This document shows, piece after piece, positions 8,558-48,139 of a stretch of 64,000 bases of DNA; within the stretch, counting starts at the first letter, position 1; each line of letters starts with the position of its first letter. This DNA is from Eledone cirrhosa (lineage: Eukaryota). The translations under genes and the position numbers were made by a program. Below the pieces are notes generated by a model that saw nothing but the letters and a program-made list of their open reading frames with translations, was not told the origin of the DNA and did not search any database. The DNA is taken from NCBI GenBank assembly GCA_964016885.1, contig OZ024742.1:321098001-321162000 (forward strand), read 5' to 3'.

Positions 8558-8562
<5 letters not shown>

Positions 8563-8688
8563 GCCGTCGAAACGGCTTGAGCTCAGCCGTCGGGGTCCTA
8601 CTCGTTTCTATTACCCACTCTACTACCCTAAGTATTGAGTACTTTGGTGCGTTATGGTCCATCTGATTCCTTACCACATTTCCTTCGC
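8558..8688 (+). mobile_element. Short PLE-like terminal fragment in (TA)n
   Basis: Inverted homolog at 9305-9497; further copies at 23230-23362 and 45294-45337; carries the ACTC..TTGAGTACT tail motif. Confidence 0.6.
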
Positions 8689-9307: not shown

Positions 9308-9494
9308 CGGAGGAAATGTGGTAAGGAACCAGGTGGACCATAATGCACCAAAGTACTCAATACTTAGGGTAGTAGAGTGGGTAATAGGAACGAGTAGGAC
9401 CCCGACGGCTGAGCTCAAGCCGTTTCGACGACTAATTCTGGACTGAATTAGCCGTCGAAACGGCTTGAGCTCAGCCGTCGGGGTCCTACTCGTT

Positions 9495-11759: not shown

Positions 11760-14700
11760 ATGCGAAGACTGGACCCGGCGGAGTGAGTGGAGGAGGATAA
11801 CATCGTCCGAACAGTCACGAATGCGGCGACAGCAAGCGGTGTGGAGCGCTAGGGCACGGCAAGGCACTACAGACGTCGTGGCCAGCCACTGCAGCCAAGG
11901 AAGTCCCTGGTCGTGACGGTCCTTCGTACCACCGGATTCTGGCTTCTGCGGCCGAGTGAGTGGGACCGTCACTGTGCACTGGCTCTCCCACTATAAACCT
12001 TTCCCGCACAGGTTTCTTCTTTAGCGTGCACTCCCAAAGCCCTGCGGCGATGGGCGAGAGGCGGGGGTAACAGGTGGAGGTAACCTCTGGGAGTTGTCAG
12101 TCTCAAACCCACACGTGGGCGGCCTGGATGCGCAAGTCGTTCTCCTCCTGACCTGGGCTGACAGAGGAGATCAGGCATTCCACCGGGCGACTGAGCAGCC
12201 CTTTTCAAGGGAGCACTGCTCAGCCTCGCACGAGGGGAGGGGCGATAAAAGGAGTCCTAACCAAATGCTCGTCCCAGAGAAAGCCGGCCAGTCTACCGCG
12301 GCTGGCGGTTTTACTCTTGCAAGCGGTCGAAACCAACATAGAAAGAAGAACTTGATTCTTGGCGCATGGAATGTGCGCACCCTCATGGATAGGGAAACCT
12401 CCTTGAGGCCAGATAGAAGAACTGCCCTCATAGCAAGGGAATTAGCTCGCTACCGGATCGACATAGCCGCCCTCATCGAGACTCGATTGCCGAAAAAGGA
12501 TCAGTGGCAGAACCGAAAGGAGGCTACACCTTCTTCTGGAAGAGCAATGAAAAGGACGAGGAAAGAATCCACGGGGTAGGCCTGTCCATCGGGACTTCAC
12601 TCTTCAAGCAGTTACCAGACCTCCCAACACCTGTGAGTGAGCGGCTGATGAAGCTCCGCTTCCCCCTCATCCCATCAGGCATGTCACAGTCATCACCAGC
12701 AGCGATGAAGCAAAGGACGCTTTCTACGGGGAACTCAACGCGCTCATGAAGGGCGTTCCTCCAAGCGATAAACTCATCCTACTGGGGGACTTCAACACAA
12801 GAGTCGGGTCTGACAGCAGCAACTAGAGAGGCAACTAGAGAGGCGTGCTGTAGGCCAGCTTTCGACGTCGCACGACTCTAGCAGCCAGAGCATCGTGATG
12901 CGTTCGCGGATTTCCTGGACAGCCGGCTGACTGCCCATGGACCACTGATCGGACCCCCAACTCAACAGTGGGATCAACTCAACAGTGGGACCAGTTTAGG
13001 TCGCTGGTGACAGAGTCAGCCAAGGCAACCATCGGGCCGAGGAAGAGAGTCCACCAGGACTGGTTTGATGAAAACGATGAGCGCTTCAGACAACTCCTGG
13101 ACGAGAAGAGGAGGGCTTTCATTGAGTGGCAGAATGACAGCTCCTCCAACTTGAAGCGCGACCGCTTCAAGCACCTCCAGAGGCAGACCCAAGCAGCGCT
13201 ACGCAGAATGCAGGACAAGTGATGGAAAAAGAAGGCCGAAGAAATCGAGAGATACGCTGACACAAAGAACTCCAAGATGTTCTCCAGCGCCATCGAGGAT
13301 GTCTACGGACTCCCCAACCCTGTCAACACACCACTGCTGTCTGCTGACGGCTCGATCCTGCTGAAGGAGAAGAGCAGCATCAACTCGAGGTGGAGAGAGC
13401 ACTTCAGCAACCTGCTCAACAGGCCCTCCACTGTCGACCCTGCCGCCCTCGACCAGGTCCCACAGAAGCCCGTAGTCGGCAGCCTCGACCACCCTCCCCC
13501 TCCCGCCCCACGTTGGATGAGGTCACGAAGACAATCAACCAGACCAGTTCAGGAAAGGCCCCTGGGAAGGACGGGATTCCTGCCGAGATCTTCAAGTCGG
13601 CCGGTCCAGCTGCCCTGGGGGCCTTCCAGGTCGTCCTAGTCAGCATATGGGAGGAAGAAGAGGTGCCCAAAGACTTCAGGGATGTCACAGTTGTCTCGCT
13701 TTTTAAGAACAAAGGCAGCTAAACTGACTGTGGCAACTATCGGGGCATTTCTCTTCTGTCCATCGCTGGGAAGGTCCTGGCTCAGGTCATGCTCAACCGC
13801 TTCATTGCCAACATCTCGGAGGACAACCTGCCTGAGGCCCAGTGTGGGTTCCGCCCAAACCGCAGCACGATCGACATGATCTTCTCTGTACGCCAGGTGC
13901 AGGAGAAGTGTGTCGAGCAGAACATGGACCTCTCTGCCGTCTTCATAGACTTGACGAAGGCATTCGACACTGTCAATAGGGAAGCCCTCTGGTAGATCCT
14001 GTCGAAGTTTGGATGCCCGACAAAGTTTATGAACCTGATACAGCAATTCCATGACGACATGACCTGGCAGGTGCGCTCGGGCGGAGAGGCATCAGAGCCG
14101 TTCGGAATCACCAACGGCGTCAAGCAAGGATGCGTGCTGGCTCCCGTCCTCTTCAACCTGTTCTTCACCTGCGTGCACAATCATGCCGTCAGGGACCTCG
14201 AGCATGGAGTGTATCTGCGATACAGACTGGACGGCTACCTGTTTGACCTGCGGCGCCTAACGGTCAAGACAAGGACCGTGCAGAGGATCGTCCTGGAGGC
14301 ACTTTTTGCTGACGACTGTGCCCTCATGGCCCACAGGGAGTCTGACCGCCAACTCATCGTCAACAAGTTTTCAGAGGCCTCCTACCTCTTCGGTATCACA
14401 ATTAGCCTTGGCAAGACTGAGGTCCTGTTCCAGCCTGCACCTGCCTCCGTCGCCCACCCTCCTTCCATTTCCATCGGAGGCACCCAGCTAAAGACGGTGG
14501 ACGATTTCAAGTACCTCGGCAGTGTCATCAGCAGTGATGGAAGCCTCGACAAGGAGATAAACGCCAGAATATGCAAGGCCAGTCAAGCTCTCGGCCGCTT
14601 GAGGACACGCGTCCTGAACCAGCACAACAACAGGCAGTCCACCAAGCTCAAGGTGTACAGGGCCGTTGTTCTCACCAGCCTCCTCTACGGATGTGAGACA

Positions 14701-15075
14701 TGGACCCTGTACAGAAGGCACCTAAAGCAGCTGGAATGATTCTACATGCGCAGCCTGCGGTGAATCATGAACATCAAATGGCAGGACAAGGTCTCCAACA
14801 TCGAAGTTCTTGACATGGCTGAAACAACCAGTGTCGAAGCTATGATACTGAAGAACCAACTTCGATGGGTGGGACATGTCATCCGGATGGACGATCACAG
14901 GCTTCCGAAGCAACTGATGTATGGGGAATTCTGTTCGGGGAAACGAAAGCGGAGCAGGCCTCTCAAGAGGTTCAAAGACTGCGTGAAGTCCAGTATCAAC
15001 AACACTGGAATCGCGCCAAAACAACTCGAGTCTCATGCTCAGGACAGGACTGAGTCGCGAACCCTCACCAGACGC
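11760..15075 (+). mobile_element. Near full-length degenerate RTE/BovB-like LINE
   Basis: GC-rich 5' UTR; APE start GAWNVRTL..IDIAALIETR; RT motifs QCGFR, FIDLTKAFDTV, GVKQGCVLAP, LFADD, KYLG; LRWVGHVIRM. Stops, frameshifts and an internal deletion near 12840-12970. Confidence 0.92.
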
Positions 15076-22867: not shown

Positions 22868-23071
22868 TCATTTCATTAAGGCTAAATAGTGAGTCTTGTT
22901 ACTGTTAAACAGGAGAAACCCCGGAATAATAAGACTCACTATTTAGCCTTATTAAAATGAATATTTAAAAACTACTTCGGTACTGAGTACTCTTTTCTCA
23001 CAGCTGTCAACCAGATATATATATTGACAGCTGTGAGAAAAGAGTACTCAGTACCGAAGTAGTTTTAAATA
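22865..23071. repeat. Double hairpin of PLE-like termini
   Basis: 22865-22897 inverted to ~22927-22962; 22961-23010 inverted to 23023-23071; carries CTGAGTACT. Confidence 0.8.
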
Positions 23072-23173: not shown

Positions 23174-23371
23174 ATAATGTCAAGACTAAAATCCGAAGAT
23201 GGCTCGATAAGAATTATATATATATATATAACAAAGAAGATGTGGTAAGATACCAGGTGGACCATAACGCACCAGAGTATTCGATACTTTCGGTAGTATC
23301 AAGTTCGGATCTAGCTGCCGAAACGGCCGGAGTTCAGCCGTCGGGGTCCTGACTCTTTTCCTATATATATA

Positions 23372-24236
23372 TATTGATAAATATGCTGGGTCTGTCAACT
23401 CCTTATTATCATTATCTCCCAACTAGCGGACTAATGAGAGTAAGTTAAACAATTTTTCACTTTTTTTATTGTTTTGTTTTGATATGCGCTCTAATTCATG
23501 CTATTAATTTTATCTCTCACTCTTTTAAGTTGTTTACGCACGCGACTGCCGCAATCCAGCTCGCTACTATATATCGCTCTATAATATATACTGGCATTTA
23601 ATGTCCGTTAAAGGTTCTTGGCACTACCATTGTTACTATCGCTTTCCTCTAGCCATGGGATCTGGAGACATGAGCCGAATGCTACCATTCTATTATACAT
23701 CGATGTGGGACTGCTATTTCTAATAACCATCTTTTCACTTCTTATTAATTTGTGTTTGAGACACGTTGGCTGAAGCCTTCTGACGGGAACGTAAAGATTT
23801 GTTTTCTATTCTCCCGCCACCATGTAAAGTTTGTAAATTGGTGGCTGGCCGAGGGACAGAATTGTATCGGATTCCAGTTGCTATTCACTTTACTGTGTCG
23901 GCCGTCACAAACTGTCGTAGCCGGCATGGGCTGGGGTTTGGATTCTGTCGATCGATTGGTTATTGATTAGGCGAAACCCGCTGATGAAGCCGCATACGCC
24001 GATTATGCTTTGTTGCATAATATATGCAGACAGAGGGTGCAGTGCACCCTACTGCTGCATTAAGTGTGGCCGAAACTCGGGTCCGGGAACTATTATAGGC
24101 ACCAGTTTTACGTGTGTTGTATTGAAGCGAATAACTATGTGTATACTCTGGGAATGTATTTTACATTGCCTATTGAGTACACTGAGATACAACCGGTCCT
24201 GGCTTTGATAAATATACTGGGTCCGTCAACATCTTA
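23372..24236 (+). mobile_element. ~860-bp non-coding HHR element with short terminal direct repeat (retrozyme / non-autonomous PLE-like)
   Basis: Starts TTGATAAATATGCTGGGTCTGTCAAC and ends TTGATAAATATACTGGGTCCGTCAAC; (TA)n on both sides; HHR at 23977-24087; no credible ORF. Confidence 0.7.
23977..24087 (+). ncRNA. Type I hammerhead ribozyme with branched stem II
   Basis: cccg CTGATGA agccgcat..[attatgc-tttgtt-gcataat][atgcagacagagggtgca-g-tgcaccctactgctgcat]..gtgtggcc GAAA ctcggg TC cggg; GUC cleavage triplet. Confidence 0.85.
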
Positions 24237-24280
24237 TATATATATATATATATATATATAAAACCGGTAGATCAAATGTT

Positions 24281-24410
24281 TATTATATGTACAGATTAAA
24301 GTTTAAGCAAAAAATCGCTGCTTTTACCCTTTTACGGGATCTTTCAAAAGATTCCGTAAAAGGGTGAAAGCAGCGATTCTTTGCTTAAACTTTAATTTGT
24401 ACATATAATA
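24281..24410. repeat. ~60-bp-arm near-perfect hairpin in (TA)n
   Basis: TATTATATGTACA..TTTTACGGGATCTTT-c-AAAAGATTCCGTAAAAGGG..TGTACATATAATA. Confidence 0.85.
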
Positions 24411-27887: not shown

Positions 27888-28127
27888 CACTCTCTCTCTC
27901 TCTCTCTCTCTCATTCTCTCTCTCTGACACATACACACTTGCACTATATAATCTATCTACAGCTGCTATTACCTAACTAGATACATATATAACCAACCTA
28001 CTTACCAACCTGTCCAGGTATCTACAACCCTAGATATCTACCTACATAGGTGTCTACTTACCTAGATATTTACCTACCTAGGTATTTATATACCTAGGTA
28101 CCTACCTCCCTATCTATCTAACTACAT

Positions 28128-30833
28128 GAGGCAATTAGAAGTGGCAACGTAGCCAGCTTGCTAGCAACGAGAACGGCCTTGGACCAGTTCTTCGACGCAA
28201 AGCACGAGGGCTGCGTTGTCAGAAGCAAAATACGTGCTCTGGGAACCGAGGGAGCCAAAGCTGTTAGCTGGGCCCGAGTGACGGAGGCAAAAAGTGGCAA
28301 CAAGTCCACGATTCGGTCTTTGAAGGACCAAGACGGGCGCGTGATACGTGAGCCGAAGCAGATGTGTGCGGCCTTTCAGCGGCACTTTGCTCAACTGTTC
28401 GGGCAGGGCGGCATGCCGGGAGGGGCTATGGATTTCGGTCCATACCTCGACGGCCTACCGCGACTCTCGGATAGCGAGGCGAAGTTCCTCGAAAAGCCGA
28501 TTTCAGCCGCTGAGATAGGGGACGCGCTGAGCCAATGCGGCAAACGCAAATCTCCAGGTCTCGACGGTCTACCCTACGAATTTTACGTAGCAATATCGGA
28601 CTTGTTCTCCGGTTTCCTGAAAGCGGTCTACTGCAACTGGCAGCAGAACGGGAGAATTCTCAGTTCTGTGACCGGGGGCGTAGTCACACTAGTCAGGAAG
28701 GACGAGAATAGGGGGGATTACATAGGCCCATAACTCTGCTAAACACAGAGTTACAGATTTTGGCCAAGGTGTTGGCAAAGAGGCTGGCGCTTGTCGTCGA
28801 GAACCTGGTGAGAGAAGCGCAGACATGCGCAATCCCAACCAGGTCCATACACGACAACCTCCACCTCACGCGATACATCATAGAGAGGGTAGGGTGTAAA
28901 CCCGGCTTTGGTGGGGCCCTGATCAACTTGAATCAGTCTATGGCTTTCGATAGGGTTGACCATCGTTACCTCGATGCGGTGCTCGAGGCGGCAGGCTTCG
29001 GACCCGTGTTCAAGGGCTAGATTGCTGCAATGCAACATCTGCTCAAGGGTCAATGTGAACGGCTACCTCTCGGATCCGTTCCATATCATGCGATCCATTC
29101 GACAGGGATGCCCTCTCTCCTCCCTTCTGTACGTACTGACTCTCGAGCCACTACTGCGGAAGTTGGAGCTATTGCAGGGCATCCCTCTGGAACCGGGACT
29201 GCGGAAAGCGGCGTCGGCCTACGCCAACGACGTGACAGTAATGGTGTCGAGCACCTCGCAAATCGAGGAGGTCGGCACCTTACTGAAGGAATACGAAAGG
29301 TTCACAGGAGCGAAGCTGAACCGGGACAAGTCCATCGGTTTGCAACTTGGATTGTGGAGAGGCAAACCGATGCCTTCCGATGGCGTCGTCGGACGCTGGA
29401 CGGAAGGACCGGTAAAGCTGCTCGGGGTCTGGTTTGGTCAGGACATCCAGGTGGAGAAGAACTGGAACGAGGTGACGGCCAAGGTGTTTGCACTCACCCA
29501 GAAGTGGGCCGAGTGCAAACTATCCTTGAAAGGTCGAGCGGAGGTGGCGAACACTTTTATAGCGTCCGCCATCTACTACCGCTTGACCGTCGTGCTTTAT
29601 CCAACCAAAACGCTCACCAAAATGGAGCGCGCTCTTCCAATTCCTTTGGAAGAGGCGTGCTCTTTTGGTGAGAAGATCCATCTGCTGCCAACACCCTTCC
29701 AACGGAGGGCTGGGGATGCCGTGGCTGACGATGCGCAAACACGCGCTAAGGCTGGGACATCTCTACATATTCCTCACCGGACAACCGGTGTGGGCCCCGT
29801 TCGTGAGGCAAGCCTTCCCACCACTCGTCTCGCTGACCGAGCTGCAGCCCTGGGTCAATCAAAGGCCGAGGAAAATGGGCGACTGGCACATCGAATGTGC
29901 TCAGGCGCTCACTCCTCTGGCAGGCGGACCCGGCGATCAGTAGAGACTCCACTTCGTCATTCTATAGAGGGTTGATCTGCAGCAAGTGCGACGACGCGCT
30001 CGATGAAACTCTAGGCGTAGAGGAAGACGAACTGGCCAGTCTGTTCGGTAGGACCTTCCGCCCGGGACCGATGGACAACTTCCAAAAGTCCCTGGCCTGG
30101 CAGTGCTACCGAGGAGCTCTACCAGTTCGAGACAAGCTCTACAGACATGGGCGCCCGAGCAGGGACCCTTCGAAAAAGATCTGTCCGAGGTGCGTGCGAG
30201 ACGAAGAAACCGTCGCGCACGCATTCATACACTGCCCGGGCGTTACCGACCTGTGGGGCTATGTAGAACGACTATTGTCGCGGGTTGGACCAATCCGGTT
30301 GACCACCGAGTCCATTGTCATGATCAAACCGCCACCCTCCTTCAAAAACGAAGGAGAGGCGGTTTTCCTTTGTGTGATAGCTATGGCGAAAGAGGTTGTA
30401 TGGTGGACAAGGTTGAAAGGGCTGAGGTCAGACACCTTTCTCTCCGGCCAACAACTGATTCTTTTTTTCAAATACCACATTAGAAGAAGAATCAGGATGG
30501 AGAGAGAGATGCTGTACCCCAGCAAGTTTTATGAAAGGTGGGTGAAAGTGGCGAGAATGGCCCGACTGAATGGGCCTTCTCTCTATATCAGTCTGTAGGT
30601 TGAGGAAAAAGAGGAAGAGAGGAAAGGGGTACAAACTCTTCGTACTCCTGGAGATGAGGGTTGCACATTTTTTCGGGGGTATGTGTTACCCATATGTAAT
30701 GTCTCCCCCTATTGGGGAAAATCGACTAATTTTTAAATTGCATTTGTGATAATATTTTACACGTTTTTATTGTAAGTAAACTTCCCCGTTTGTATTTGTC
30801 CCCTTCTTTTGTGCCCCTGTGGCTAATAAAGAA
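28128..30833 (+). mobile_element. Tx1/L1-clade LINE copy 1 (5'-truncated, frameshifted)
   Basis: KSPGLDGLPYEFY, AFDRV, IRQGCPLS, C-terminal CPRC..E..HAFIHC; ends CCCTGTGGCTAATAAAGAAA followed by (TATC)n; preceded by CTATCTATCTA. Confidence 0.92.
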
Positions 30834-30861
30834 ACATATCTATCTATCTACATATCTATAG

Positions 30862-31143
30862 ACCTTCTCTGTATATAAACCTGTAGGTTGAGGAAGATAA
30901 ACAGAAGGAAGACGGGAACACCTACAAATTGTGTTCCTGGTGTGGAGGGTTGTTCTATCCATTGGGTGTAAAACAACCCCACAGTAGCGCCCCCCCCCCA
31001 CCCCCACCATAATGGGGATTTCAATTGTTTTATTTTTATATAGTTTGTTGTTATTTATCATTGTTGAAGACTTTATGTAAAACACCCGCCGTCACGTCTT
31101 GTAATGTCCCATTTTTGTGCGCCCCTGTGGCAAATAATGAAAG
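30862..31143 (+). mobile_element. Tx1-like 3' UTR-only fragment, diverged subfamily (copy 2)
   Basis: CCTTCTCTGTATATAAACCTGTAGGTTGAGGAAG..CCCTGTGGCAAATAATGAAAG between ATCT repeats. Confidence 0.8.
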
Positions 31144-31168
31144 ATATTTATCTATCTATCTATCTATT

Positions 31169-31582
31169 TGAGGTCAGACACCTTTCTCTCCGGCCAACAA
31201 CTGATTCTTTTTTTCAAATACCACTTTGGAAGAAGAATCAGGATGGAGAGAGAGGTGCTGTACCCCAGCAAGTTTTATGAAAGGTGGGTGAAAGTGGCGA
31301 GAATGGCCCGAGTGAATGGGCCTTCTCTCTATATCAGCCTGTAGGTTGAGGAAAAGGAGGAGGAGAGGAAAGGAGTACAAGCTCTTCGTACTCCTGGAGA
31401 TGAGGGTTGCACATTTTTTTTAGGGGGTATGTGTTACCCATATAAACTGTCTCCCTCTATTGGGGAAAATCGACTAACTTTTAAATTCCATCTGTGATAA
31501 CATTTTACACGTTTTTATTGTATGTAAACTTCCCCCTTTGTATTTGTCCCCTTCTTTTGTGCCCCTGTGGCTAATAAAGAAA
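31169..31582 (+). mobile_element. Tx1-like 3' fragment (copy 3)
   Basis: Almost identical to 36612-37025; flanked by (TATC)n. Confidence 0.9.
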
Positions 31583-31817
31583 TATATCTATCTCTCTATC
31601 AGTCGTGTGTCACTTCGCGGAGAAGTTTCCGTTAATTTATGTAAGAAAAAAACGTGAGTTTTTAGTTAAATTTTATATCATTGTGTAACTTGACCACCCG
31701 TCTGGACCTTCAGCTGGTGGGTCAACTCATTTTCGCCCCTTCAGGGGCGGAATATCCATTTAAAAAATTTTTCTCCATCGAATCTTGGAAAAAATATTGT
31801 AAAATTTTGATTACGTT

Positions 31818-33716
31818 ATGAACACTGCGTCCAACGATAATGGTGGTGGAGAGGCGGTAAGACTCCAAAGCTCGCAGTCAACAACGTCTTCTTCACTAGA
31901 TACTATAGAGATGGAAAGACAAAATGAAAATAAAAAAACGAATTCACATCCAAACAACACAAATGACACCAAACAGCTCAATGACAACAAAAATAACAGC
32001 AAAACCAATAATGATGATAAAAGCAACAATGATAACAACAACAAAGAAAAAAATAAAGACAACGCCAATAACACCAGCATCAAAGACAACAACAACACCA
32101 AGGAAAATACGGATGATACCAACATCGGTGACAACAAGAATAACAACAACAATAACAACAATAATGACAACACCACCAATACGGATTCCACAAAGAAACC
32201 AAAAATCTCCTTTGCGGAGAAAGTTCAAAAGAAAGAACAATTGATATATCTCGACATAACAAATGCTGAACACCTTTTAAAGGACGCTAAGAGATATGTC
32301 ACCTTCGAAAAAAATGGTGCTTTCAGCATCAATTCTCCGGTAGAAATGCGCAAGGAAACTGCTCTCAAAACGATAGTTTTTAGGACAGTTTCCAATTCTA
32401 CCCGAAAACCAGTCCAATTGTCACAGAAAGATATTGAACTGGTTTTCAAAGATTCAATGAATGATATTGCATTCATTCAAAGAAGCAAACTTTTTGGGAG
32501 TATTTCGGTGCTCATGAAGGATCAATTGACGGCCCAAAATTACTCTGTGTCGCCAATTGTATCCAACCTGTACACCTTTTTCCCTACATACATGGGAAAA
32601 AGGACACAAAAGATCAGAATCACGAGTGTCACACCAAAGGTGAACATATGGTGGATACTGTGCGGCTTCATCAATTTTGATGAAGACAGAATACTGTCAG
32701 TAGGAAAGTCCCCCAGAGATGTATTCAATGGGACTAGCATTGAAGTTCTGGTGCAAATGAGCCCAGAGCGAATAGCTATGATCCCACAGCGTGTACTCCT
32801 GGACGGACTCACCTACATAAACCTTTCGGTTGAGGGTAGGCGGCCTTCATGTTACCATTGCTTTAGCAGGGGTCACCTGAGGGCTTCCTGTCCTAAACTA
32901 ATGAACCAAAAAAAGGCTCTTCTGCCGACACCCATCAAAACAACACAACCACCAACACCACCACAACAACAACAACACCAACACACAAAAATAACCACAA
33001 CAAACACAGTCCCACCCAACCCCACTCCACCTAAAACCACTGCAAAATCACATACAGACACAACAGCTCCCCAAGACATACCCCTCCCCAATCACAGAGA
33101 CGATACAACAGATGAGGCTGTCTCGCCATCACCCAGTGAAGACGAGGGAGAACCCCATCGCTCGAAAAGAAAGAAAAGACATCACAAAAGCAAAAAAACA
33201 GCAAACACTACCACAAACATACAACCACCAAGACAAACAAAACCCCCACCTCCTGAAAACAAAACACCTACAACAAAAGGAAAGCACACACAAGAACTAC
33301 AGACAAAAACAAACACAACACAAGAAAATTGCACTTACACTTACATAAACACTGAAAACAAAACACTAATGGAGACCATCACGAACGACCCTTCGGTGAA
33401 AACCGAAGGGAAAACTTTCGCCCACTCTATTAAAAATAGCAAAAAACTAAACCTAAAACTGATTAGGGTCCCTATACAAACTTATAGGTCCCTAAAAGAA
33501 ACATTTAAGAAGGATGTGGGGAATTCCTGCGTGAAACCACTCAACCGCGTCCTTCTCAAATGCCTCCCCACCCCAGACACCCCCATCCCACCAGACCCCA
33601 CCCCACCAAACATCTGCGTCCCCACCCCGCCGGAAACCACCACCCATCCAAACAACCCCTCCAACACCCCCATGGAAATCGTGCGGCCTGGTCCCCAGGA
33701 GGCGAAGGATGAGTGA
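31818..33716 (+). CDS. Tx1/L1-type ORF1 (gag-like nucleic-acid-binding protein), 632 aa, open
   Basis: CCHC knuckle CYHCFSRGHLRASC; Asn-rich N-terminus; Pro/Thr/Lys-rich C-terminus; lies directly upstream of ORF2. Confidence 0.85.
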   Translation: MNTASNDNGGGEAVRLQSSQSTTSSSLDTIEMERQNENKKTNSHPNNTNDTKQLNDNKNNSKTNNDDKSNNDNNNKEKNKDNANNTSIKDNNNTKENTDDTNIGDNKNNNNNNNNNDNTTNTDSTKKPKISFAEKVQKKEQLIYLDITNAEHLLKDAKRYVTFEKNGAFSINSPVEMRKETALKTIVFRTVSNSTRKPVQLSQKDIELVFKDSMNDIAFIQRSKLFGSISVLMKDQLTAQNYSVSPIVSNLYTFFPTYMGKRTQKIRITSVTPKVNIWWILCGFINFDEDRILSVGKSPRDVFNGTSIEVLVQMSPERIAMIPQRVLLDGLTYINLSVEGRRPSCYHCFSRGHLRASCPKLMNQKKALLPTPIKTTQPPTPPQQQQHQHTKITTTNTVPPNPTPPKTTAKSHTDTTAPQDIPLPNHRDDTTDEAVSPSPSEDEGEPHRSKRKKRHHKSKKTANTTTNIQPPRQTKPPPPENKTPTTKGKHTQELQTKTNTTQENCTYTYINTENKTLMETITNDPSVKTEGKTFAHSIKNSKKLNLKLIRVPIQTYRSLKETFKKDVGNSCVKPLNRVLLKCLPTPDTPIPPDPTPPNICVPTPPETTTHPNNPSNTPMEIVRPGPQEAKDE

Positions 33717-33749
33717 TCTCTTTTCCTCTTTTAACTTTTCAGCACCAAC

Positions 33750-36700
33750 ATGGCCAATATAAGAGTTGGATGTGTGAACGTACGCGGCCTGGGGATGCCC
33801 TGGAAACAGGGCAAACTCTTAAACGACCTCAGGTCGCACAGTTTGGATGTGGTAGCCATTTGCGAGTCCAGGATCCACGGCGAGCGACAGCTGGCCCCCA
33901 TCTTCGATGACTTTGAGATCTACGCATCTCTCTGTCAACCGGGGGGTGGGGGCGGAGTTGCCGTTTTGCTGCGGAAACACCTGGACCTCGTAACACAGAC
34001 GGTACATCTGGACCCGGAGGGTCGACTGGTGGTCCTAGACGTTGACGGTAGTGAAGGTGGAGCGTTCAGGCTGGTGGCCGCATATGCCCCATCCGGGACA
34101 CCGCGGCCAAACTTCTTCAAACGTCTAGAGACTTTTCTGGGAACGTCCCGCTCCTTGCTTTTAGTGGGGGACTGGAATGGAATCCTAGGTGCACGTTGGG
34201 ACTATGTGGGAGCATGTCCCGATAAAGGGGGGTATAACAACCTGAAACAGTTAATCGACCGATTTGAACTGGCCGATAGATATCGACTAGATTTTCCGAC
34301 TGCGCCACTGTGGACGTGGAGTAATCGTAGCGGAGCATCTAGATCGTACCTAGATAGGGTTCTAGTTAGAAATAAGGATAGGGACATGTTAAGCTGTCCA
34401 CAAATGTTCATGGTTGCCTATTCAGATCACAAACTAGTGACCTGCATGGCCAACCTTGATAGAACCCATAGAGAAGGACCCGGCTACTGGAAGCTGAACT
34501 TGTCGTTACCGACAAACAAAGCCTACAGTAGACGGATTAGCACTTTAGTTAAACGGCACTTGACAGGGGCCATTGTCAACAACAGATGGTGGTACTCTCT
34601 CAAGAGGGCAGTTAGATTAGACTCGATAGTTTTTAGTAAAGAATTAGCGTTAGATAGAAATAGAACCGAGAAGGAACTGGTAGATAAAGTAGAAGAGGCA
34701 ATTAGAAGTGGCAACGTAGCCAGCGTGCTAGCAACGAGAACGGCCTTGGACCAGTTCTTCGACGCAAAGCACGAGGGCTGCGTTGTCAGAAGCAAAATAC
34801 GTGCTCTGGGAAACGAGGGAGCCAAAGCTGTTAGCTGGGCCCGAGTGACGGAGGCAAAAAGTGGCAACAAGTCCACGATTCGGTCTTTGAAGGACCAAAA
34901 CGGACGCGTGATACGTGAGCCGAAGCAGATGTGTGCGGCTTTTCAGCGGCACTTTGTTCGGCTGTTCGGGGGGAGCGGCGCGCCGGGAGAGGCTATGGAT
35001 TTCGGTCCATACCTCGACGGCCTACCGCGACTCTCGGACAGCGAGGCGAAGTTCTGCGAAAAGCCGATTTCAGCCACTGAGATAGGGGACGCGCTGAGCC
35101 AATGCGGCAAACGCAAATCTCCAGGTCTCGACGGTCTACCCTACGAATTTTACGTAGCAATGCCGGACTTATTCTCCGGTCTCCTGGAAGCGGTCTACTG
35201 CAACTGGCAACAGAACGGGAGAATTCCCAGTTCTGTAACCGGGGGCGTAGTCACACTAATCAGGAAGGACGAGAATAAGGGGGATGACATAGGCAACTTC
35301 CGGCCCATAACTCTTCTAAACACAGAGTTACAGATTTTGGCCAAGGTGTTGGCAAAGAGGCTGGCGCTTGTCGTCGAGAACCTGGTGGGAGAAGCGCAGA
35401 CATGCGCGATCCCAACCAGGTCCATACACGACAACCTCCACCTCATGCGATACATCATAGAGAGGGTAGGGTGTAAACCCGGCTTCGGTGGGGCCCTGAT
35501 CAACTTGGATCAGTCTAAGGCTTTCGATAGGGTTGACCATCGTTACCTCGATGCGGTGCTCGAGGCGGCAGGCTTCGGACCCGTGTTCAGGGGCTGGATT
35601 GCTGCAATGCACAACAGCAACATCTGCTCAAGGGTCAAGGTGAACGGTTACCTCTCGGAACCGTTCCATATTACGCGATCCATTCGACAGGGATGCCCTC
35701 TCTCCTCCCTTCTGTACGTACTGACTCTCGAGCCACTACTGCGGAAGTTGGAGCTATTGCAGGGCATCCCTCTGGAACCGGGACTGCGGAAAGCGGCGTC
35801 GGCCTACGCCGACGACGTAACAGTAATGGTGTCGAGCGCCTCGCAAATCGAGGAAGTCGGCACCTTACTAAAGGAATACTAAAGTCTCACAGGAGCGAAG
35901 CTGAACCGGGACAAGTCCATCGGTTTGCAACTCGGATCGTGGGGAGGCAGAACGATGCCTTCCGATGCCTTCCGGTGTGGGTCCCGTTCGTGAGGCGAGC
36001 CTTCCCACGATTCGTCTCGCTGACCGAGCTGCAGTCCTGGGTCAAGCAGAGACCAAGGAAAATGGGCGACTGGCACATCGAATGTGCTCAGGCGCTCACA
36101 GCCCTCTGGCAGGCGGACCCGGCGATCAGTGGAGACTCCACTTCGTCATTCTATAGAGGATTGGTCCGCAGCAAGTGCGACGACACGCTCGGTGAAACTC
36201 TAGGCGTAGAGGAAGATGAACTGGTCAGTCTGTTCGGTAGGACCTTCCGCCCGGGACCCATGGACAACTTCCCAAAGTCCCTGGCCTGGCAGTGCTACCG
36301 AGGAGCTCTACCAGTTCGAGACAAGCTCTACAGACATGGGCGCCCGGGCAGGGACCCTGCAAAAAAGATCTGTCCGAGGTGCGTGCGAGACGAAGAAACC
36401 GTCGCGCACGCATTCACACACTGCCCGGGCGTCATCGACCTGTGGGGCTATGTAGAACGACTATTGTCGCGAGTGGGACCAATCCAGTTGACCACCGAGT
36501 CCATTGTCATGATCAAACCGCCACCCTCCTTCAAAAACGAAGGAGAGGCGGTTTTCCTTTGTGTGATAGCTATGGCGAAAGAGGTTGTATGGTGGACAAG
36601 GTTGAAAGGGCTGAGGTCAGACACCTTTCTCTCCGGCCAACAACTGATTCTTTTTTTCAAATACCACTTTGGAAGAAGAATCAGGATGGAGAGAGAGGTG

Positions 36701-36787
36701 CTATACCCCAGCAAGTTTTATGAAAGGTGGGTGAAAGTGGCGAGAATGGCCCGAGTGAATGGGCCTTCTCTCTATATCAGCCTGTAG
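33750..36787 (+). pseudogene. Tx1/L1 ORF2 (APE endonuclease, reverse transcriptase, C-terminal Zn motif); stop at 35880-35882 and ~400-bp deletion at ~35970
   Basis: NVRGL, ICESR, VGDWN, SYLDRV, YSDH; FRPITLLN, DQSKAFDRV, RQGCPLS, AYADD; comparison with copy 1 shows GAA>TAA and loss of the region matching ~29382-29784. Confidence 0.92.
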
Positions 36788-37200
36788 GTTGAGGAAAAGG
36801 AGGAGGAGAGGAAAGGAGTACAAGCTCTTCGTACTCCTGGAGATGAGGGTTGCACATTTTTTTTAGGGGGTATGTGTTACCCATATAAACTGTCTCCCTC
36901 TATTGGGGAAAATCGACTAACTTTTAAATTGCATCTGTGATAACATTTTACACGTTTTTATTGTATGTAAACTTCCCCCTTTGTATTTGTCCCCTTCTTT
37001 TGTGCCCCTGTGGCGAATAAAGAAATATATCTATTTGTCTGTCTATCAATCTTCATAAATGCCTACTTTTCGACGTATTAACATAATTACTTACCTACCC
37101 ATCAGCCTACATATATACGTACCTACCTACATCGTTGCTTATCTTCCTATATGTGCATCTACCAACCTAGCTATCTATCTATCTATCTATCTATCTATCT

Positions 37201-39090
37201 GTCGACCATCGATACTTGGAAGCGGTTCTCAAGGCGGCCGGTTTCGGTCCCGTGTTCAGAGGATGGATCGAGGCGATGCACACCAGCATCTGCTCGAGGG
37301 TCAAGGTGAACGGCTACCTATCGGAGCCGTTCGCAATCACGCGTTCCATTCGACAGGGATGCCCTATCTCCTCCACTCTGTATGTATTAACTCTAGAGCC
37401 ACTACTGCGGAAATTGGAGCTGTTGCAGGGCATCCCCCTAGAACCGGGACTGCGCAAAGCGGCGTCGGCTTATGCCGACGACGTGACAGTAATGGTGTCG
37501 AGCACCTCGGAAATCGGGGTGATCGGCAACATACTGAAAGAATACGAAACGCTGACAGGAGCAAAACTAAACCCAGACAAGTCTGTCGGTTTGCAACTCG
37601 GTACGTGGAGAGGCAAACCGATGACATCCGACAGCGTCGTTGGACGCTGGACGGACGGACCGGTAAAATTGCTCGGGGTCTGGTTCGGTCCAGACCTCCA
37701 GGTGGAGAAAAACTGGAACGAGGTCACGGCCAAGGTGTTTGCACTCACTCAGAAGTGGGCAGAGTGCAAACTGTCCTTGAAAGGTCGAGCGGAGGTGGCG
37801 AACACTTTCATAGCGTCCGTCATCTACTACCGCTTGACTGTCGTGCCTTGTCCCCGTGAACACCTCGCCAAGATGGAACGCATGCTCTTCCAGTTTCTGT
37901 GGAAGAAGCAGGCTCCGCTGGTGAGGAGATCCGTCTGCTGTCAGCACCCTTCCAACGGAGGGCTGGGAATGCCGTGGCTGATGATGCGCAAACATGCGCT
38001 GAGGCTGCGGCATCTCCAGGTATTCCTCACCGACCCCCAACCGGTGTGGGCACCGTTTGTGAGACAGGCTTTCCCACAGCTCGTCTCGCTAACGGAGCTG
38101 CAGTCCTGGGTGAAGAAAAGACCGAAAACGATGGGTGCCTGGCACATTGAATGCGCTCAGGCGCTCACAGTCCTCTGGCAAGCGGGCGCAGAAATCAGTG
38201 GAGACTCCACTTCGACATTCTATAGAGGGATTGTACGTTACAAGGGCGACGACGTGCTCGGAGAGACTCTGGGCGTCGAAGACGATGAGCTCACCAGTAT
38301 GTTTGGTAGGACTTTCCGCCCGGGACCTATGGACAACTTCCAGAGGTCCCTGGCCTGGCAGTGCTACCGAGGAGCTCTACCGGTTCGTGACAAGATCTAC
38401 AGGCACGGACGCCCTGGCAGGGATCCTTCCAATAAGACGTGTCCAAGATGTGCGCAGGACATTGAAACAGTTCTGCACGCAATTGTACACTGCCCGGGCG
38501 TAAGCGACCTGTGGAACTATGCAGAACAACTGCTGTCGCGTATGGGACAAATACAGTTGACTGCCGAGTCCATAGTAAGGATCAAATCGCCAGACTCTTT
38601 CAAAAACAAAAGAGAGGCGGTTTTCCTCTGTACGGTGGCTATGGTGAAAGAAGTTATATGGTGGACGAGGTTGAGAGGACTGAGGACAGATGCCTTTCTC
38701 TCCGGACAACAATTGATTCCATTCTTTAAGTATCACTTTAGAAGGAGAATCAGGGTGGAGAGAGAGGCACTGCACCCCAGTAAATTTACTGAAAGGTGGG
38801 TGAATGAAGCGAAAATGGCCCGAGTGATTGGGCCTTCTCTGTTTATAAGCCTATAGGTTGAGGAAGAGAGCAAAAGGAAGAAAGGAGCACTTGCATAACA
38901 CGCTCCTTGAGTTGAGGGTTGTTCTATCGACGGGGTATTAAACAACCCATTTGTGGCGCCTCCCCCCTATTGGGGATTTCGATTGTTGAAATTGTTTGTT
39001 TTTATATTTTTTACACGACTGTATGTAAAATCCCCGGCATGTCTTTGTATTGTCCCCTTTCTTGTTGCGCCCTTGTGGCTAATAAAGAAA
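37201..39090 (+). mobile_element. Tx1-like copy 5, 5'-truncated, diverged subfamily, frame open to its stop (37216-38856)
   Basis: RQGCPIS, AYADD, CPRC..E..HAIVHC; pure (CTAT)n immediately 5' and (TCTA)n immediately 3'. Confidence 0.92.
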
Positions 39091-39528: not shown

Positions 39529-42500
39529 GAGTTTGAACGGACGTCTTTTTGCTCGCTCCCGTAAGTTCACTTATTTACCTATCAAAACTGATTTATTGAA
39601 TTTTTGTTGTTGTGTAAGGCATACAAGCCCTTGGACTTTGCCCTGTGAAGGGGAAAGAATAATATTTGGGCCTTTTGGCCCAAATATTTGAACTTTTTTA
39701 CATTTTAAAAAAATTATCGAGAAAAAACAAAACAAAAAACATGTCTGAGCCACGCCCCCAGCGATATGTCTGCTGTCGTGCGACAACGACGTAGAAGTTG
39801 AGAGGAGCGCTACAGCGAAATTAACACAAATTGATAACACAAACACCACCACAAACAATGTAAACAAAGACACCAATGATACCAATGAGAACTCTAATTG
39901 TGAAAAAAATGACAGTAACAGCGACAACGAAAATACAGATAACAAAAAAAAAATGACAAATGCAACAACAATATCAACGCCACTAACATGAAAACAAATA
40001 GCGACAACAGCAACAATACCAACTGCACCGAGAACAACGGTTGCAACAAAGACAACAATGATAACAGCGACAGTGATAACAACACCAACAAGAACAACGA
40101 CAATGACAACACCAACACTTTAGCTGCGGCAGCAGCAAAAAAGAGGCCATGCTTCAACATGGACCTCTCAAACAAAGATCAAAAGTTGGCCCAGGCATGG
40201 AAGCTCATCAAGCAAGAGCAAACCTGGGCCAACTTAACTGTCCCGGTAGAAGCTATTGAGGCAGTGGAGCGCAGAACGGTGCATTATAGATGTATCTCAG
40301 CACAAACCAAAAAGGGCAGCTTTAATCCCACAAGCAGAAGTCGAAGTCGCGCTGAGGTGCATCAGAGAAGATACCCAATACATAGAGAGGGCAGACAGTA
40401 CGGCACTATTTCGGTGTTGTTCAAGTCAGAAGCCCTCGCTATGAAACACGCTATGACTCCTTGCAAAACCAGCAAGGTCATAATGTACCCCCTCCCACAT
40501 GGGAAAAAGAACGGCCCGTTTCCGCATTCCTAGAATCCCACCAGGACTTGACATGTGGTGGCTTCTGGGATGTGTGATTGTGGAGGGGACGGATACCGTC
40601 CCGATAGAAGTGACCAGAACAGCCAGAGAGGACTGGTCCGGGGTTGACCTGGAGATCCTTCTCCGGATCAGGCCCGAGAATGTGAAGACAATCCCGAACC
40701 ACATCCGCCTTCAGAATGGGACGGTCATTCATATTATGACCGAAGGCTAAAGGCCGCATTGTTTTGTTTGTGGGGAAAAAACCCATTTGCGAGCATTCTG
40801 CCCTCAACTACTGAAAGATGCAAGGGGTCGAAAGGCTCCACTGCTGCCGACGCCGGGGCGATGACCACAACCAACACCAGCACCGGCAAAACCACCAACA
40901 ACACCAATAGAAAGACCACCACCAACATTGACCACCCGGGGTGGGGGAAACGAGGAAAGCTGTCAAATTCCCACTCCCCCCACCCTCCAAATACACACAC
41001 CAATAAAACCATAAACACACACACAGACACACTTACAAACACAGACCCCTCATCTACCAGTAGTGAAGATGAAGAAAAACCAAAATCCCCCAAAATACAA
41101 AAAAGGAAACACAAAAAGAAAAAAAAAACTCAACAAAGCACAAAATCACCCACAATAAAACGCAGACACCACCCACGCAAACATCTCTCCAATAACACCA
41201 ACATCAACACCACCATCACCATCACCAGAATCCCCCAAACGCAAACAACCTAAACAGACGCAAGAACAAATATACACTCAAACATCTGAAACCACAGACA
41301 CCGCACTCACAACAAACACCGCACTCACAACAAACACAAACACAACCGAAACAACACCACCAAAACCATCACCACCACAGCCACGCAAAAAAATAAAATC
41401 ACACCAACAAAACATACAAAACTTCGTGCTCGTCTGGAGGGACAACAAGGAACTGATGGCCCTCGTAGCACGAAGTGAAAATATACAAAAAGATGGGGAA
41501 ATGTTTAAATCGAGCACATTTCGCGTGCCGGAAGATTTGTTTCTGGTGCGAATGTCGCTCGATATATACAAAGAAATACGAGACAGCTTTCCTCGGGACG
41601 TGGGAACCCCGAACGTAAAACCCACTTCAAGACTTTTAAAGGGGTTCCCAAAAGAAATCCCACCAACTATGGAGGTCGAACCACCCGACCTTCACAAGAG
41701 CCCGGAAGGTAAGTAAACCTTTCCTCTCTCTTTTTAACCTGCCAACATGGCCGTATTAAGAGTAGGAAGTTTAAATGTTCGATGCCTGGGATCGTCCTGG
41801 AAGCAGAATCACCTGCTCAACGACATCAGGTCTCTAGAAATGGATGTAATTGCCGTCAGCGAGACCAGGATTTACAACACGCGCGCACTAGCCCCCATTT
41901 TCGACGACTATCAGATCTTTGCATCTGTTAGCTGGCCGGGAATGGGAGGCGGGGTGGCAGTGCTGTTTAGGAAAGGCCTCGATCTCGAGGTAAGGTCGAT
42001 CTTCCGGGACCCGGACGGGATGTTGGTGGTCCTGGACGTGAACAATAACGAAGGTGGTGCCTTTAGACTGGTGGCCGTCTATGCTCCTACTGGGGCAGGA
42101 CGGCCGGACTTCTTTAGACGCCTGGCAGCCTTTCTGGGTACGTCTCGCCCTTTACTGTTAGCGGGGGACTGGAACGGCATCTTAGACGCACGATGGGACT
42201 GTGTGGGAGTATCCGATAGGAGCGGGGGGTGCAAAAGCCTCAAGAACCTGATCAGCCAGTTCCAACTATCTGACAGGTACCGACTAGATTTCCCTAATAC
42301 GCCAGTGTGGACCTGGACTAACCGCATAGGGTCATCTAGATCGTATATAGACAGGATATTCATTAGGAAAATAGACAGAAATAGTGTAAGCTGTCCACGT
42401 TTTGAAACGGTCGCCTATTTAGATCACAAGTTTGCGATCTGTAGGGTCGACCTAACACCCTGGCCAAAATCTTAAACTCTGTGTTGAGCAGAGTTATGGG

Positions 42501-43552
42501 CCTGAAATTGTCTAATGTGTCTCTCTTGTTCTCGTCTTTCCTTATCAGCGTCACTACGTCCCGGCTCACAGATGCCAGTCACCCAGTCTCGGTCTCTTCT
42601 TGACCCAGGACTGCAGCTCAGTCAAAGTGGCTGCGGCATCTTCAGATATTCTGCCTAAACGGTGAACAGGTGTGGTCGCCGTTTGTCAGACGGGCCTTTC
42701 TGCAGCTCGTTTCTTTGACTGAGCTGCAATCCTGGGTCAAGAAGAGACCGAGACTGGGTGACTGGCATCTGTGAGCCGGGGCGTAGTGACGCTGATAAGG
42801 AAAGACGAGAACAAGAGGGACACATTAGACAATTTCAGGCCCATAACTCTGCTCAACACAGAGTTTAAGATTTTGGCCAGGGTGTTAGCGAAGAGGTTGG
42901 CGCTTGTCGTCGGGGATTTGGTTGGGGAGGCGCAAACTTGCGCAATCCCAACCAGGTCCATACACGACAACCTCCACCTAATGCGATACATCATAGAGAG
43001 AGTAGGGTGTAAACCTGGCTTCGGTGGGGCTCTGATCAATTCAGATCAATCGAAAGCATTCGATAGGGTCGATCATCGGTTCCTGGAGGCTGTCCTCGAG
43101 GCGGCTGGCTTCGGCCCCGTCTTCAGAAGATGGATCGGTGTAATGCACAGCGGCACCTGCTCGATGGTCAAAATTAATGGCCACCTCTCGGAACCGTTTC
43201 AGGTCTCTCGATCGGTCCGTCAAGGGTGCCCTCTCTCCTCCGTTCTGTACGTATTAACTCTCGAGCCTTTACTGCGGAAGCTGGAGCTGTTGCAGAGCAT
43301 CCCGCTCGAACCGGGACGCGGAAAGACTGTGTCGGCTTATGCGGACGACATCACCGTGATGGTGTCGGACACCTCAGAAATCGAGGTGGTCGGCAACTTA
43401 TTGGAGGAATATGAAAGGGTGACGGGAGCAAAACTTAACCCGGAAAAGTCGGTGGGCTTGCAACTCGGCACCTGGAGAGGTAAGTCCATGCCGTCCAACA
43501 GCGTCGTTAGGCGCTGGACGGACGGACCGGTAAAGTTGCTAGGGGTTTGGAA
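39529..43552 (+). mobile_element. Older Tx1-like copy 6: frameshifted ORF1, APE, scrambled RT, 3'-truncated
   Basis: ORF1 remnants homologous to copy 4 (YGTISVLFK, MGKRT..WWLLG); APE 41747-42450; RT 42771-43550 with SKAFDRV, RQGCPLS, AYADD. Confidence 0.88.
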
Positions 43553-43595
43553 CAATCCTCAGAATCTTGCACGAGCACTCGGTAAGATTATATAT

Positions 43596-43792
43596 AGAGG
43601 GGGAGAGGTAGAACACTGGAAGGTAATATCCGTAGTGGTAGAGCACTCAGTCCATGGGACGAATTTGGTAGAAGTGGTAACACAACAGTTAGTTCACCAC
43701 ACCGAGAACAATTGTAACGACGAGTTGAAGATCCGCTAAGGTGTAACAATTGTTCTCGGTATGGTGAACTAACTGTTGTGTTACCACTTCTA
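43596..43792 (-). repeat. PLE-like terminal fold-back
   Basis: 43669-43718 inverted to 43744-43792; CTGAGTGCT tail motif on minus at 43642-43650. Confidence 0.6.
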
Positions 43793-44495: not shown

Positions 44496-45336
44496 GTCTA
44501 AATGCTACACAACACCTAAAGCTTACACCTCGTGCGTTGAAAGCCATATGCGGTGATAATGGTTATGCTAGAAATAATAGCCTATTTACACTCATTTTTA
44601 TAAGCTCAACAGATAAGGAGCCGAAATACAAATAAAATATAGAGTTAATAACTCTTATATATATATATATATATTGTTATGCTTTGGGAGGGCCATGTTG
44701 CCAATAAGAATTCAGAAACGAAATATATATATATATATATTTAGTTGATTCTATTGACTGATGAATAGCTTTTGTTAACTTATAACCATTCTGCTGAGAG
44801 CTTAATTCGTTTTGTGATATTTTGCATTTTTGCAATAATATACACATACTGAATTTCATCCGCCAAAAATAAGGGTTGCCTCCCTTGTCGAGCCCCATGT
44901 GGGTATCGGTAACGGTCATTCCTTGCCTGGCACTTGAACTAAAACCTGTTTAGAAAGTGACTTCCTTGTTCAATCAGCTTACCAAAAGCTTAACATTATT
45001 TGTCTAAGCGGACAGAACTTGATTTAGGAGTCGCAGAAACCCAAATGCTGGATTTTATCAACCATCCAGGGGTCCGGGTAAATTTTTTCAATCACATATT
45101 TTTTTATTTGTTTGACCCGAATTACTTGGTCGTTTCTATGGCTGTGCGGATAATGGTTTAACCATCGTCTCAGTGTGTTTGGCCTTTTAACGTATGTTGT
45201 AGCTCTGGTTCGTTAGAATTATTGAGCGCTTGCCACACATCTCGGAAGTGGTTTTTCGCTAATTCCAAAGCCGAAATACGATTCTCGCTAATTTGGTGCG
45301 TTATGGCCCACCTGGTTCCTTACCACATTTCTTCGT

Positions 45337-47580: not shown

Positions 47581-48139
47581 AATACATACATACAAACATA
47601 CATACATATATATTATACATATATACATAATACATACATACAAACATACATACATATATATTATACATATATACATAATACATACATACAAACATACATA
47701 CATATATATTATACATATATACATAATACATACATACAAACATACATACATATATATTATACATATATACATAATACATACATACAAACATACATACATA
47801 TATATTATACATATATACATAATACATACATACAAACATACATATATATTATACATATATACATAATACATACATACAAACATACATACATATATATTAT
47901 ACATATATACATAATACATACATACAAACATACATACATATATATTATACATATATACATAATACATACATATAAACATACATACATATATACATAATAC
48001 ATACATACAAACATACATACATATATATTATACATATATACATAATACATACATACAAACATATATACATAATACATAGAAACATACATATATATATTAT
48101 ACATATATACATAATACATACATACAAACATACATACAT
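47581..48139. repeat. 48-bp minisatellite built from CATA/TA units (resumes at 50658-50760 and 51371-51445)
   Basis: AATACATACATACAAACATACATACATATATATTATACATATATACAT, about 11-12 copies. Confidence 0.9.

Follow-up and report, generated by a model that had tools for sequence, protein, structure and literature searches.

A dispersed, non-coding hammerhead repeat family of Eledone cirrhosa, probably mobilised by Penelope-like elements

Animal retrozymes are expressed as circular RNAs (Cervera & de la Pena 2020, PMC7229834). Elements of this kind have been described as non-autonomous derivatives of Penelope-like elements (PLEs), many of them monomers, and eight of nine Xenopus dimers failed to cleave (Li, Clavereau & Pollet 2026, 10.64898/2026.07.22.740005). 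The minimal hammerheads of PLEs are thought to act as dimers and have low activity in vitro; a circle model for them is set out in the same source (PMC4209133). A CX2-5CxxC linker marks the Neptune/Nematis PLEs (Craig et al. 2021, 10.1101/2021.04.23.441226). Mobilisation of animal retrozymes from circular RNA by PLEs figures in the accounts of PMC7229834 and 10.64898/2026.07.22.740005 as a proposal rather than a demonstration. A literature search (supplements lay outside its scope) found no description of the family presented here, for which an entry in Repbase or Dfam is possible, and none of retrozymes in cephalopods.

The locus lies in a 64,000-nucleotide stretch of the Eledone cirrhosa genome, here called the window. 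The reading that we prefer, at a probability of a little under 60%, is that the copy in the window belongs to a non-coding hammerhead repeat family that is likely mobilised in trans by PLEs of the Neptune type, from an RNA that is likely circular.

The window copy and its family

The window copy consists of a full 831-bp unit preceded by 26 bp of an upstream partial unit, 1.03 units in all (Table 1). TTGATAAATATRCTGGGTCYGTCAAC stands at 23374-23399 and again at 24205-24230, with 24 of 26 positions identical and a period of 831. An earlier note, made from this one stretch, had described (TA)n on both sides, a terminal repeat of ~26-30 bp and no credible ORF. The TA runs are there, and so is the repeat, not as a fixed end of the element: it is a 5'-truncated second unit, because longer copies cross the junction into another unit. 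Coding capacity is indeed lacking, the longest ATG ORF having 74 aa and the longest stop-to-stop frame 95 aa. The unit contains no tRNA and no matches to A or B (Pol III) boxes. A short plus-strand frame at 23784-23966 was considered as a PLE CxxC/GIY-YIG linker and rejected, no profile match lying there in 88 element regions; pairwise tblastn gave a best E of 0.005-0.01 in a tiny search. Because the window is rich in microsatellites (147 tandem-repeat rows), the TA flanks of any one copy are weak evidence, and it is their recurrence across the family that counts.

Table 1. Parts of the window copy and of its hammerhead motif, in positions of the window
Feature	Positions	Strand	Remarks
(TA)6 run	23362..23373	.	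5' remnant of target microsatellite; microsatellite 5' flank in 73/88 sampled copies
Upstream partial unit, 5'-truncated (unit's last 26 bp)	23374..23399	+	longer head-to-tail versions in other copies
Unit-to-unit junction, TCC(TTA)n-TCTCC tract	23400..23418	+	57 exact genome-wide matches; putative internal priming site
Full non-coding unit, 831 bp, subfamily A, 42% GC	23400..24230	+	3.6% from subfamily A's commonest letters
Type I hammerhead motif	23977..24087	+	4-bp stem I, CUGAUGA, branched stem II, GAAA, palindromic minimal stem III, GUC
Stem I	CCCG 23977-80 / CGGG 24084-87		4 bp
CUGAUGA core	23981-87		
Long stem II with two capping hairpins (three-way junction)	23989..24070	+	alignment pairing and circular fold
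Stem II base	23989-95 / 24064-70		capped by two hairpins
GAAA core	24072-75		
Stem III, AC-UCGG-GU			2 bp, palindromic
GUC triplet	24083/24084		predicted scissile bond
3'-terminal hairpin, conserved, directly before fixed end	24194..24225	+	candidate recognition signal
Fixed 3' end: GTCAAC and short tail	24225..24236	+	tail ATCTTA in window copy; TCCTTATTA in most copies
(TA)13 run	24235..24260	.	3' side of target microsatellite

Other repeats surround the copy. A TA-flanked repeat of ~130 bp at 23232-23361 carries a GAAAC...GTC stretch that resembles half a hammerhead, with no CUGANGA, and pieces of it recur at 8561-8685, 9316-9494 and 45294-45333 of the window and in 39 element loci. Near-perfect palindromes with 46- and 64-bp arms lie between TA runs at 22965-23069 and 24281-24410; they are probably places where the ends of other TA-targeting repeats meet, head-to-head or tail-to-tail, and they were a source of spurious miRNA-family matches. 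LINE-type endonuclease/RT ORFs, some of them long (715 and 561 aa), occupy 28122-38856, 41738-43739, 48080-50637 and 13996-14739.

More than 1,000 places in the genome hold the repeat, mostly within TA runs. A DNA search of the 3.0-Gb genome returned 3,379 candidates at a first look; among the 40 that were scored, the long best matches were 86-94% identical. Exact patterns provide lower bounds on family size, each with a reversed control of 0: at least 1,140 matches for the 3' end followed by TA, at least 855 for a 30-mer at the 3' end, at least 222 for a mid-unit 27-mer and at least 108 for a pattern of an older subfamily. Three subfamilies, A, B and C, are separable, with median distances from their own commonest letters of 5.8% (96 segments), 4.4% (43) and 13.1% (32), respectively; full-length units with few deletions span about 820-885 bp. 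The window copy is an ordinary, aged member of the family. Some copies are duplicated together with their flanks, in part in alternating orientation (contig C1 349.19-349.37 Mb; L190/L191; L083/L084), pointing to segmental or assembly duplicates. Three sequencing runs of unspecified kind, all from one sample, contain many related contigs, which have no bearing on expression.

The main sample for the anatomy of insertions comprised 90 loci from the first 30-mer matches on contig C1, reduced to 88 by dropping the duplicates L060 and L084; being conditioned on an exact 30-mer, it leans to less decayed copies. Measured from the 3' end, lengths range from 31 to 1,400 nt, 73 of the 88 copies being shorter than one unit and 15 longer. 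The 5' ends are variable and the 3' end is fixed at (TTA)n/(TA)n; in a second sample, anchored in mid-unit, the same 3' end is reached by 81 of 87 matches, and four run on into a further unit. Copies that pass the unit start enter the 3' part of another unit through a constant TCC(TTA)n-TCTCC junction, with a head-to-tail redundancy that varies from none to ~570 bp and with the longest sampled insertions at 1.5-1.7 units. The window copy had been interpreted as a unit-length copy with slight terminal redundancy, made from a circular or tandem RNA by a PLE RT. Redundancy through copying of more than one unit stands; the length of the redundancy is not fixed family-wide, and the terminal repeat is not a feature that other copies reproduce. 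Five of them (L001, L005, L012, L078 and L102) do stop at the window copy's 5' end point, where the sequence is TA-like.

Genome-wide, the junction pattern has 57 exact matches with only one adjacent pair (L057), so that long tandem arrays, for which the earlier note had suggested a search, are essentially absent; no array of three full units was found among these matches. As read by eye from the sequences, seven of the 88 loci contain the cleavage site twice, a count that leaves out L057, whose upstream hammerhead is deleted, and three (L055, L059 and L062) have two complete hammerheads; beyond these three, L003, L014, L017, L289 and L195 also have two. The window copy has one hammerhead only. 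The units of one locus have 16 rare variants in common, against 4.2 expected from other copies (22 dimers, those with differently classed or too-short units being left out), and both units of a dimer thus usually come from one template lineage. TTA numbers are 4-5 at six junctions and 2 at 50 of 68 classified 3' ends (16 were unclassified), and the 3' end of L057 lies at a second TTA-like site, ~110 nt inside the next unit; both observations fit priming inside a longer RNA. An inverted truncated copy of the element itself lies at its 5' end in one duplicated event (L190/L191) among 219 flanks.

In principle an RTE/LINE element could carry the family along as it would a SINE, the (TTA)n tail serving for recognition; the hammerhead and the PLE chimeras described below would then be incidental. 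It shares its (TTA)n end with an abundant tRNA-type SINE of the genome, the window is rich in LINE RT ORFs, and a fixed 3' end with 5' truncation is general in non-LTR retrotransposition. What makes this origin improbable is the conjunction of constant-junction partial dimers, inverted neighbours, TA targeting and a minimal hammerhead of PLE type, all matching PLE descriptions, with a unit devoid of tRNA or Pol III boxes and with insertions outside microsatellites at which no target-site duplication is evident by eye (TA runs mask most other loci). At several loci the element's TTA tract holds a SINE that has A- and B-box-like motifs and a (TTA)n end: at the unit junctions of L010, L024, L045 and L059, and at the 3' ends of L013, L041, L092, L105 and L206. 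These insertions are independent, because the SINE 5' ends differ each time, and a SINE in the junction tract could give some dimers a promoter.

The hammerhead motif

The hammerhead had been called intact and GUC-cleaving. The core letters and the GUC triplet are in place; the motif departs from an intact one in an extra base on either side of the stem II base (one after A9, one before G12) and in a stem III of 2 bp. When region 23970-24095 is folded, both stem I and stem II form, with z = -3.3; of 200 shuffled sequences, 2 did as well. Rfam called no hammerhead at gathering or at E<=10, which is attributed to the 70-nt branched stem II, and its matches were limited to miRNA-like hairpins on the flanking palindromes.

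In an alignment of 46 copies (18 A, 18 B, 10 C) out of 92 available, all core positions have the same commonest letter in A, B and C, and the cleavage triplet is GUC in subfamilies A and B and GUA in C. Outside core and triplet the subfamilies are 65-72% alike, yet these two elements are conserved; the core is intact in 119 of the 169 copies that span the hammerhead. Across the alignment 94.3% of cells pair, versus 26-49% with partners slid. In stem II, 94-98% of cells are paired, and an A-U to G-C double change is found in 18 of 46 rows; in the 3'-terminal hairpin (24194-24225) a pair is C-G in A, A-U in C and a mismatch in B, and two further one-sided changes keep the pairing. Support from covariation is modest, since these changes are two or three inherited events rather than many independent ones.

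The stem III palindrome is perfect in most copies and has one still-pairing change in the window copy; the predicted energy of a dimer duplex through stem III is -10.7 kcal/mol, and -8.9 for the window copy. In a circular fold of the unit, stem II has pair probabilities of 0.92-0.99 and stem I a probability of 0, the active hammerhead fold having a predicted local cost of ~10 kcal/mol. A stable stem II without stem I would, in such a model, protect a circle; it could equally mean poor cleavage. A pattern search with the same stem III and a shorter stem II produced 42 matches, mostly internal deletions of this family; in six other matches that were inspected (L303, L313, L321-L325 region), neither the unit nor a neighbouring PLE ORF could be connected with the motif. 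Many element copies (L292-L320) show clean loss of one or both stem II hairpins, suggesting that reverse transcriptase skips over structure.

The copied RNA and its putative helper

A cut linear monomer primed at the fixed 3' end would give copies of at most 150 nt, because the predicted cleavage site lies ~150 nt upstream. That site is passed by 60 of the 88 copies and, in an independent sample (8 already-sampled matches excluded), by 74 of 79. Some templates may nevertheless have been cut linear RNA: in the first sample 8 of 67 5' ends fall at the cleavage site versus 2.3 expected (scan-corrected P 0.056), and L010 and L242 begin exactly at the predicted cut. As a feature of the family a peak of 5' ends at this site was rejected; it is absent from the second sample, in which 5 of 79 ends lie in the 14 nt at the cleavage site versus 0-6 in neighbouring bins, and it coincides with a TATTATA microhomology.

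Since most copies read through the cleavage site, the template was a circle or an uncut tandem, which genomic sequence cannot separate: whatever mark a circle leaves in the genome, an uncut tandem transcript leaves as well. Nor can amplification of the junction serve as a diagnosis, because closing a circle at 24083/24084 simply restores the sequence as it was before the cut, and a divergent-PCR product is not circle-specific, because the unit-to-unit junction also exists in genomic DNA (the 57 matches above). The same family and the same PLE machinery might thus have worked with a linear template, an uncut tandem or read-through transcript in which the hammerhead is slow or acts as a signal for protein binding or for 5' processing; a circle would then be unnecessary. 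Read-through of the cleavage site and partial dimers fit this equally, insertions of 1.5-1.7 units are attainable from a dimeric transcript, stem I is unformed in the unit fold, and minimal hammerheads are weak in vitro (PMC4209133). Such a template has a real, if clearly minor, chance of being the right one: linear copying would shorten the element in each round, full two-hammerhead dimers are rare (3/88), three successive subfamilies need a way to regenerate more-than-unit copies, and core and triplet were kept while the rest of the unit diverged. We infer a circle in preference to an uncut tandem because three subfamilies arose in the face of this shortening and in view of the circular RNAs expressed from related elements (PMC7229834).

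A GIY-YIG search of the genome gave 10,596 candidates, 150 of them scored; loci taken from these contain frames with RT, CX2-5CxxC and GIY-YIG of up to 938 and 1,096 aa, in copies 97-98% identical. Two genomic PLE families have a hammerhead 95-200 nt ahead of a TA/CA end. Young families of Neptune type with long open RT-GIY-YIG frames are found at L151:3806-6622, L153:1775-5065 and L154:3719-5629, and some of the hammerheads in their 3' UTRs have a variant core or a mismatch at the stem II base.

With the genome's autonomous-type PLEs so laid out, a hammerhead shortly ahead of a TA end, the copies might be thought to come from an autonomous PLE with its ORF further upstream, as truncated pieces of its 3' UTR or pseudo-LTR. 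Copies that extend past the unit start enter another unit; none of the longer ones runs into an RT-GIY-YIG ORF, a check that the earlier note had proposed. Its first ground for refutation, that the copies be 3' UTRs of autonomous PLEs, therefore does not overturn its reading. By tblastn, a same-direction PLE ORF is present in 0 of 219 5' flanks and an inverted one in 2, and an endonuclease profile applied to 88 element regions found no ORF remnant (best E 0.1). This origin is largely refuted already, and we regard it as very improbable; the unit may descend from an ancient PLE UTR. No sequence common to unit and PLEs was found in 50 GIY-YIG loci or in 19 loci of the leading family, which are a small share of the 10,596.

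Physical joins between element and PLE do occur. At L015 and L198 the element lies head-to-head with a truncated PLE, seamlessly, the rest of the PLE being missing on the other side; at L291 it is joined seamlessly and in the same direction to a truncated PLE over a short common word, the PLE remainder being missing beyond; and at L286 it directly abuts a PLE 3' end. L198, L291 and L286 involve one PLE family of similar age and abundance (3,413 candidates, 87-91% identity), which is the leading candidate for a partner. The three chimeras span two PLE families, come from ~250 loci looked at without a chance model, and could also result from later deletion. Taken together, partial tandems, inverted neighbours, TA targeting and the three chimeras point to Penelope-like machinery, putatively of the Neptune type.

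Mobilisation in trans from a circle, the preferred reading, would proceed as follows. A locus with two hammerheads would be transcribed; the two motifs would pair through their palindromic stem III, so that a monomer of ~830 nt is cut out and ligated to a circle. The GIY-YIG endonuclease of a PLE would nick (TA)n, and the freed end would prime on the internal (UUA)n tract by the 3' hairpin. Reverse transcriptase would then copy round the template through the resealed cleavage site to a stop point that varies and often lies at TA-like microhomology. Products longer than one unit would be a minority, and the few that regain two hammerheads could become new masters. The window copy would have stopped 26 nt into the second round; as it has a single hammerhead, no circle could form from it.

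Two tandem hammerhead units with no relation to this family were also seen, of ~459 and 511 bp (L152:6500-7400; L161:8067 and 8578), the former TA-flanked and likewise with a long branched stem II, and the genome seems to hold several such families of hammerhead units. More doubtful is the broader proposition that the present family is a record of rolling-circle target-primed reverse transcription, in which a circular ribozyme RNA unrelated to its helper would be recognised by structure only (3' hairpin and UUA tract) by more than one Neptune-type RT and primed internally, with an occasional switch between the circle and the helper's own mRNA in one insertion. If true, the family would be a ready system for testing the retrozyme mobiliser and the circle as template, and several unrelated hammerhead units of like build in the same genome would add to its value.

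Comparison with retrozymes and Penelope-like elements

In all sequence-level criteria tested, the family appears to work like the animal non-LTR retrozyme or non-autonomous Penelope class. The class itself is already known; what is new within it is this family, long, dispersed and poor in arrays. The placement by the earlier note among non-autonomous hammerhead retroelements of the retrozyme kind is upheld by a dispersed non-coding family in which the hammerhead is kept and copies run into a further unit. Like the animal elements of PMC7229834 and 10.64898/2026.07.22.740005, it has a non-coding unit with one type I hammerhead and a GC content below 50% (42% here), head-to-tail copies, no true LTR (the repeat length is variable), co-occurring PLEs and dispersed monomers. 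The unit of 831-885 bp compares with 150-450 bp in PMC7229834 and with a range of 51-972 bp in 10.64898/2026.07.22.740005. In contrast to the retrozymes that these sources describe, there are nearly no arrays; most copies are solos truncated at the 5' end or partial dimers, their fixed 3' end lying in TA runs. The predicted hammerhead belongs to the minimal PLE type, its stem II being long and branched. At least two complete hammerheads in tandem, the arrangement of animal retrozymes, occur in the family (3/88 loci) and not in the window copy. Target-site duplications, which in animal retrozymes exceed 4 bp when present, are masked here by TA runs at most loci, and by eye none is seen at the others.

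The 5' truncation, partial tandems (pseudo-LTRs), inverted truncated neighbours and microsatellite targets are those of EN+ Neptune/Nematis PLEs (Craig et al. 2021); unlike PLEs, the element has no RT or GIY-YIG ORF. Like the minimal PLE hammerheads of PMC4209133, its hammerhead has a stem I that is short and a stem II that is long, with a palindromic loop 3 and one more base after A9; it differs from those described there in the added base before G12 and in the ~70 nt of stem II's two hairpins. Plant LTR retrozymes are likewise non-autonomous hammerhead elements, of 600-1000 nt according to the introductions of PMC7229834 and 10.64898/2026.07.22.740005; theirs is a type III hammerhead inside true LTRs, with PBS/PPT and 4-bp duplications, whereas here it is of type I and outside the repeated end, and the repeat length varies. 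Unlike a tRNA-derived SINE, the unit has no tRNA-related head and no A or B boxes. Set beside these systems, the family offers a countable footprint: a priming site 150 nt from the cleavage site, read-through, more-than-unit products and PLE chimeras. Because this footprint can be counted and young PLEs with long frames reside in the same genome, the hypothesis of mobilisation by PLEs becomes testable with defined constructs.
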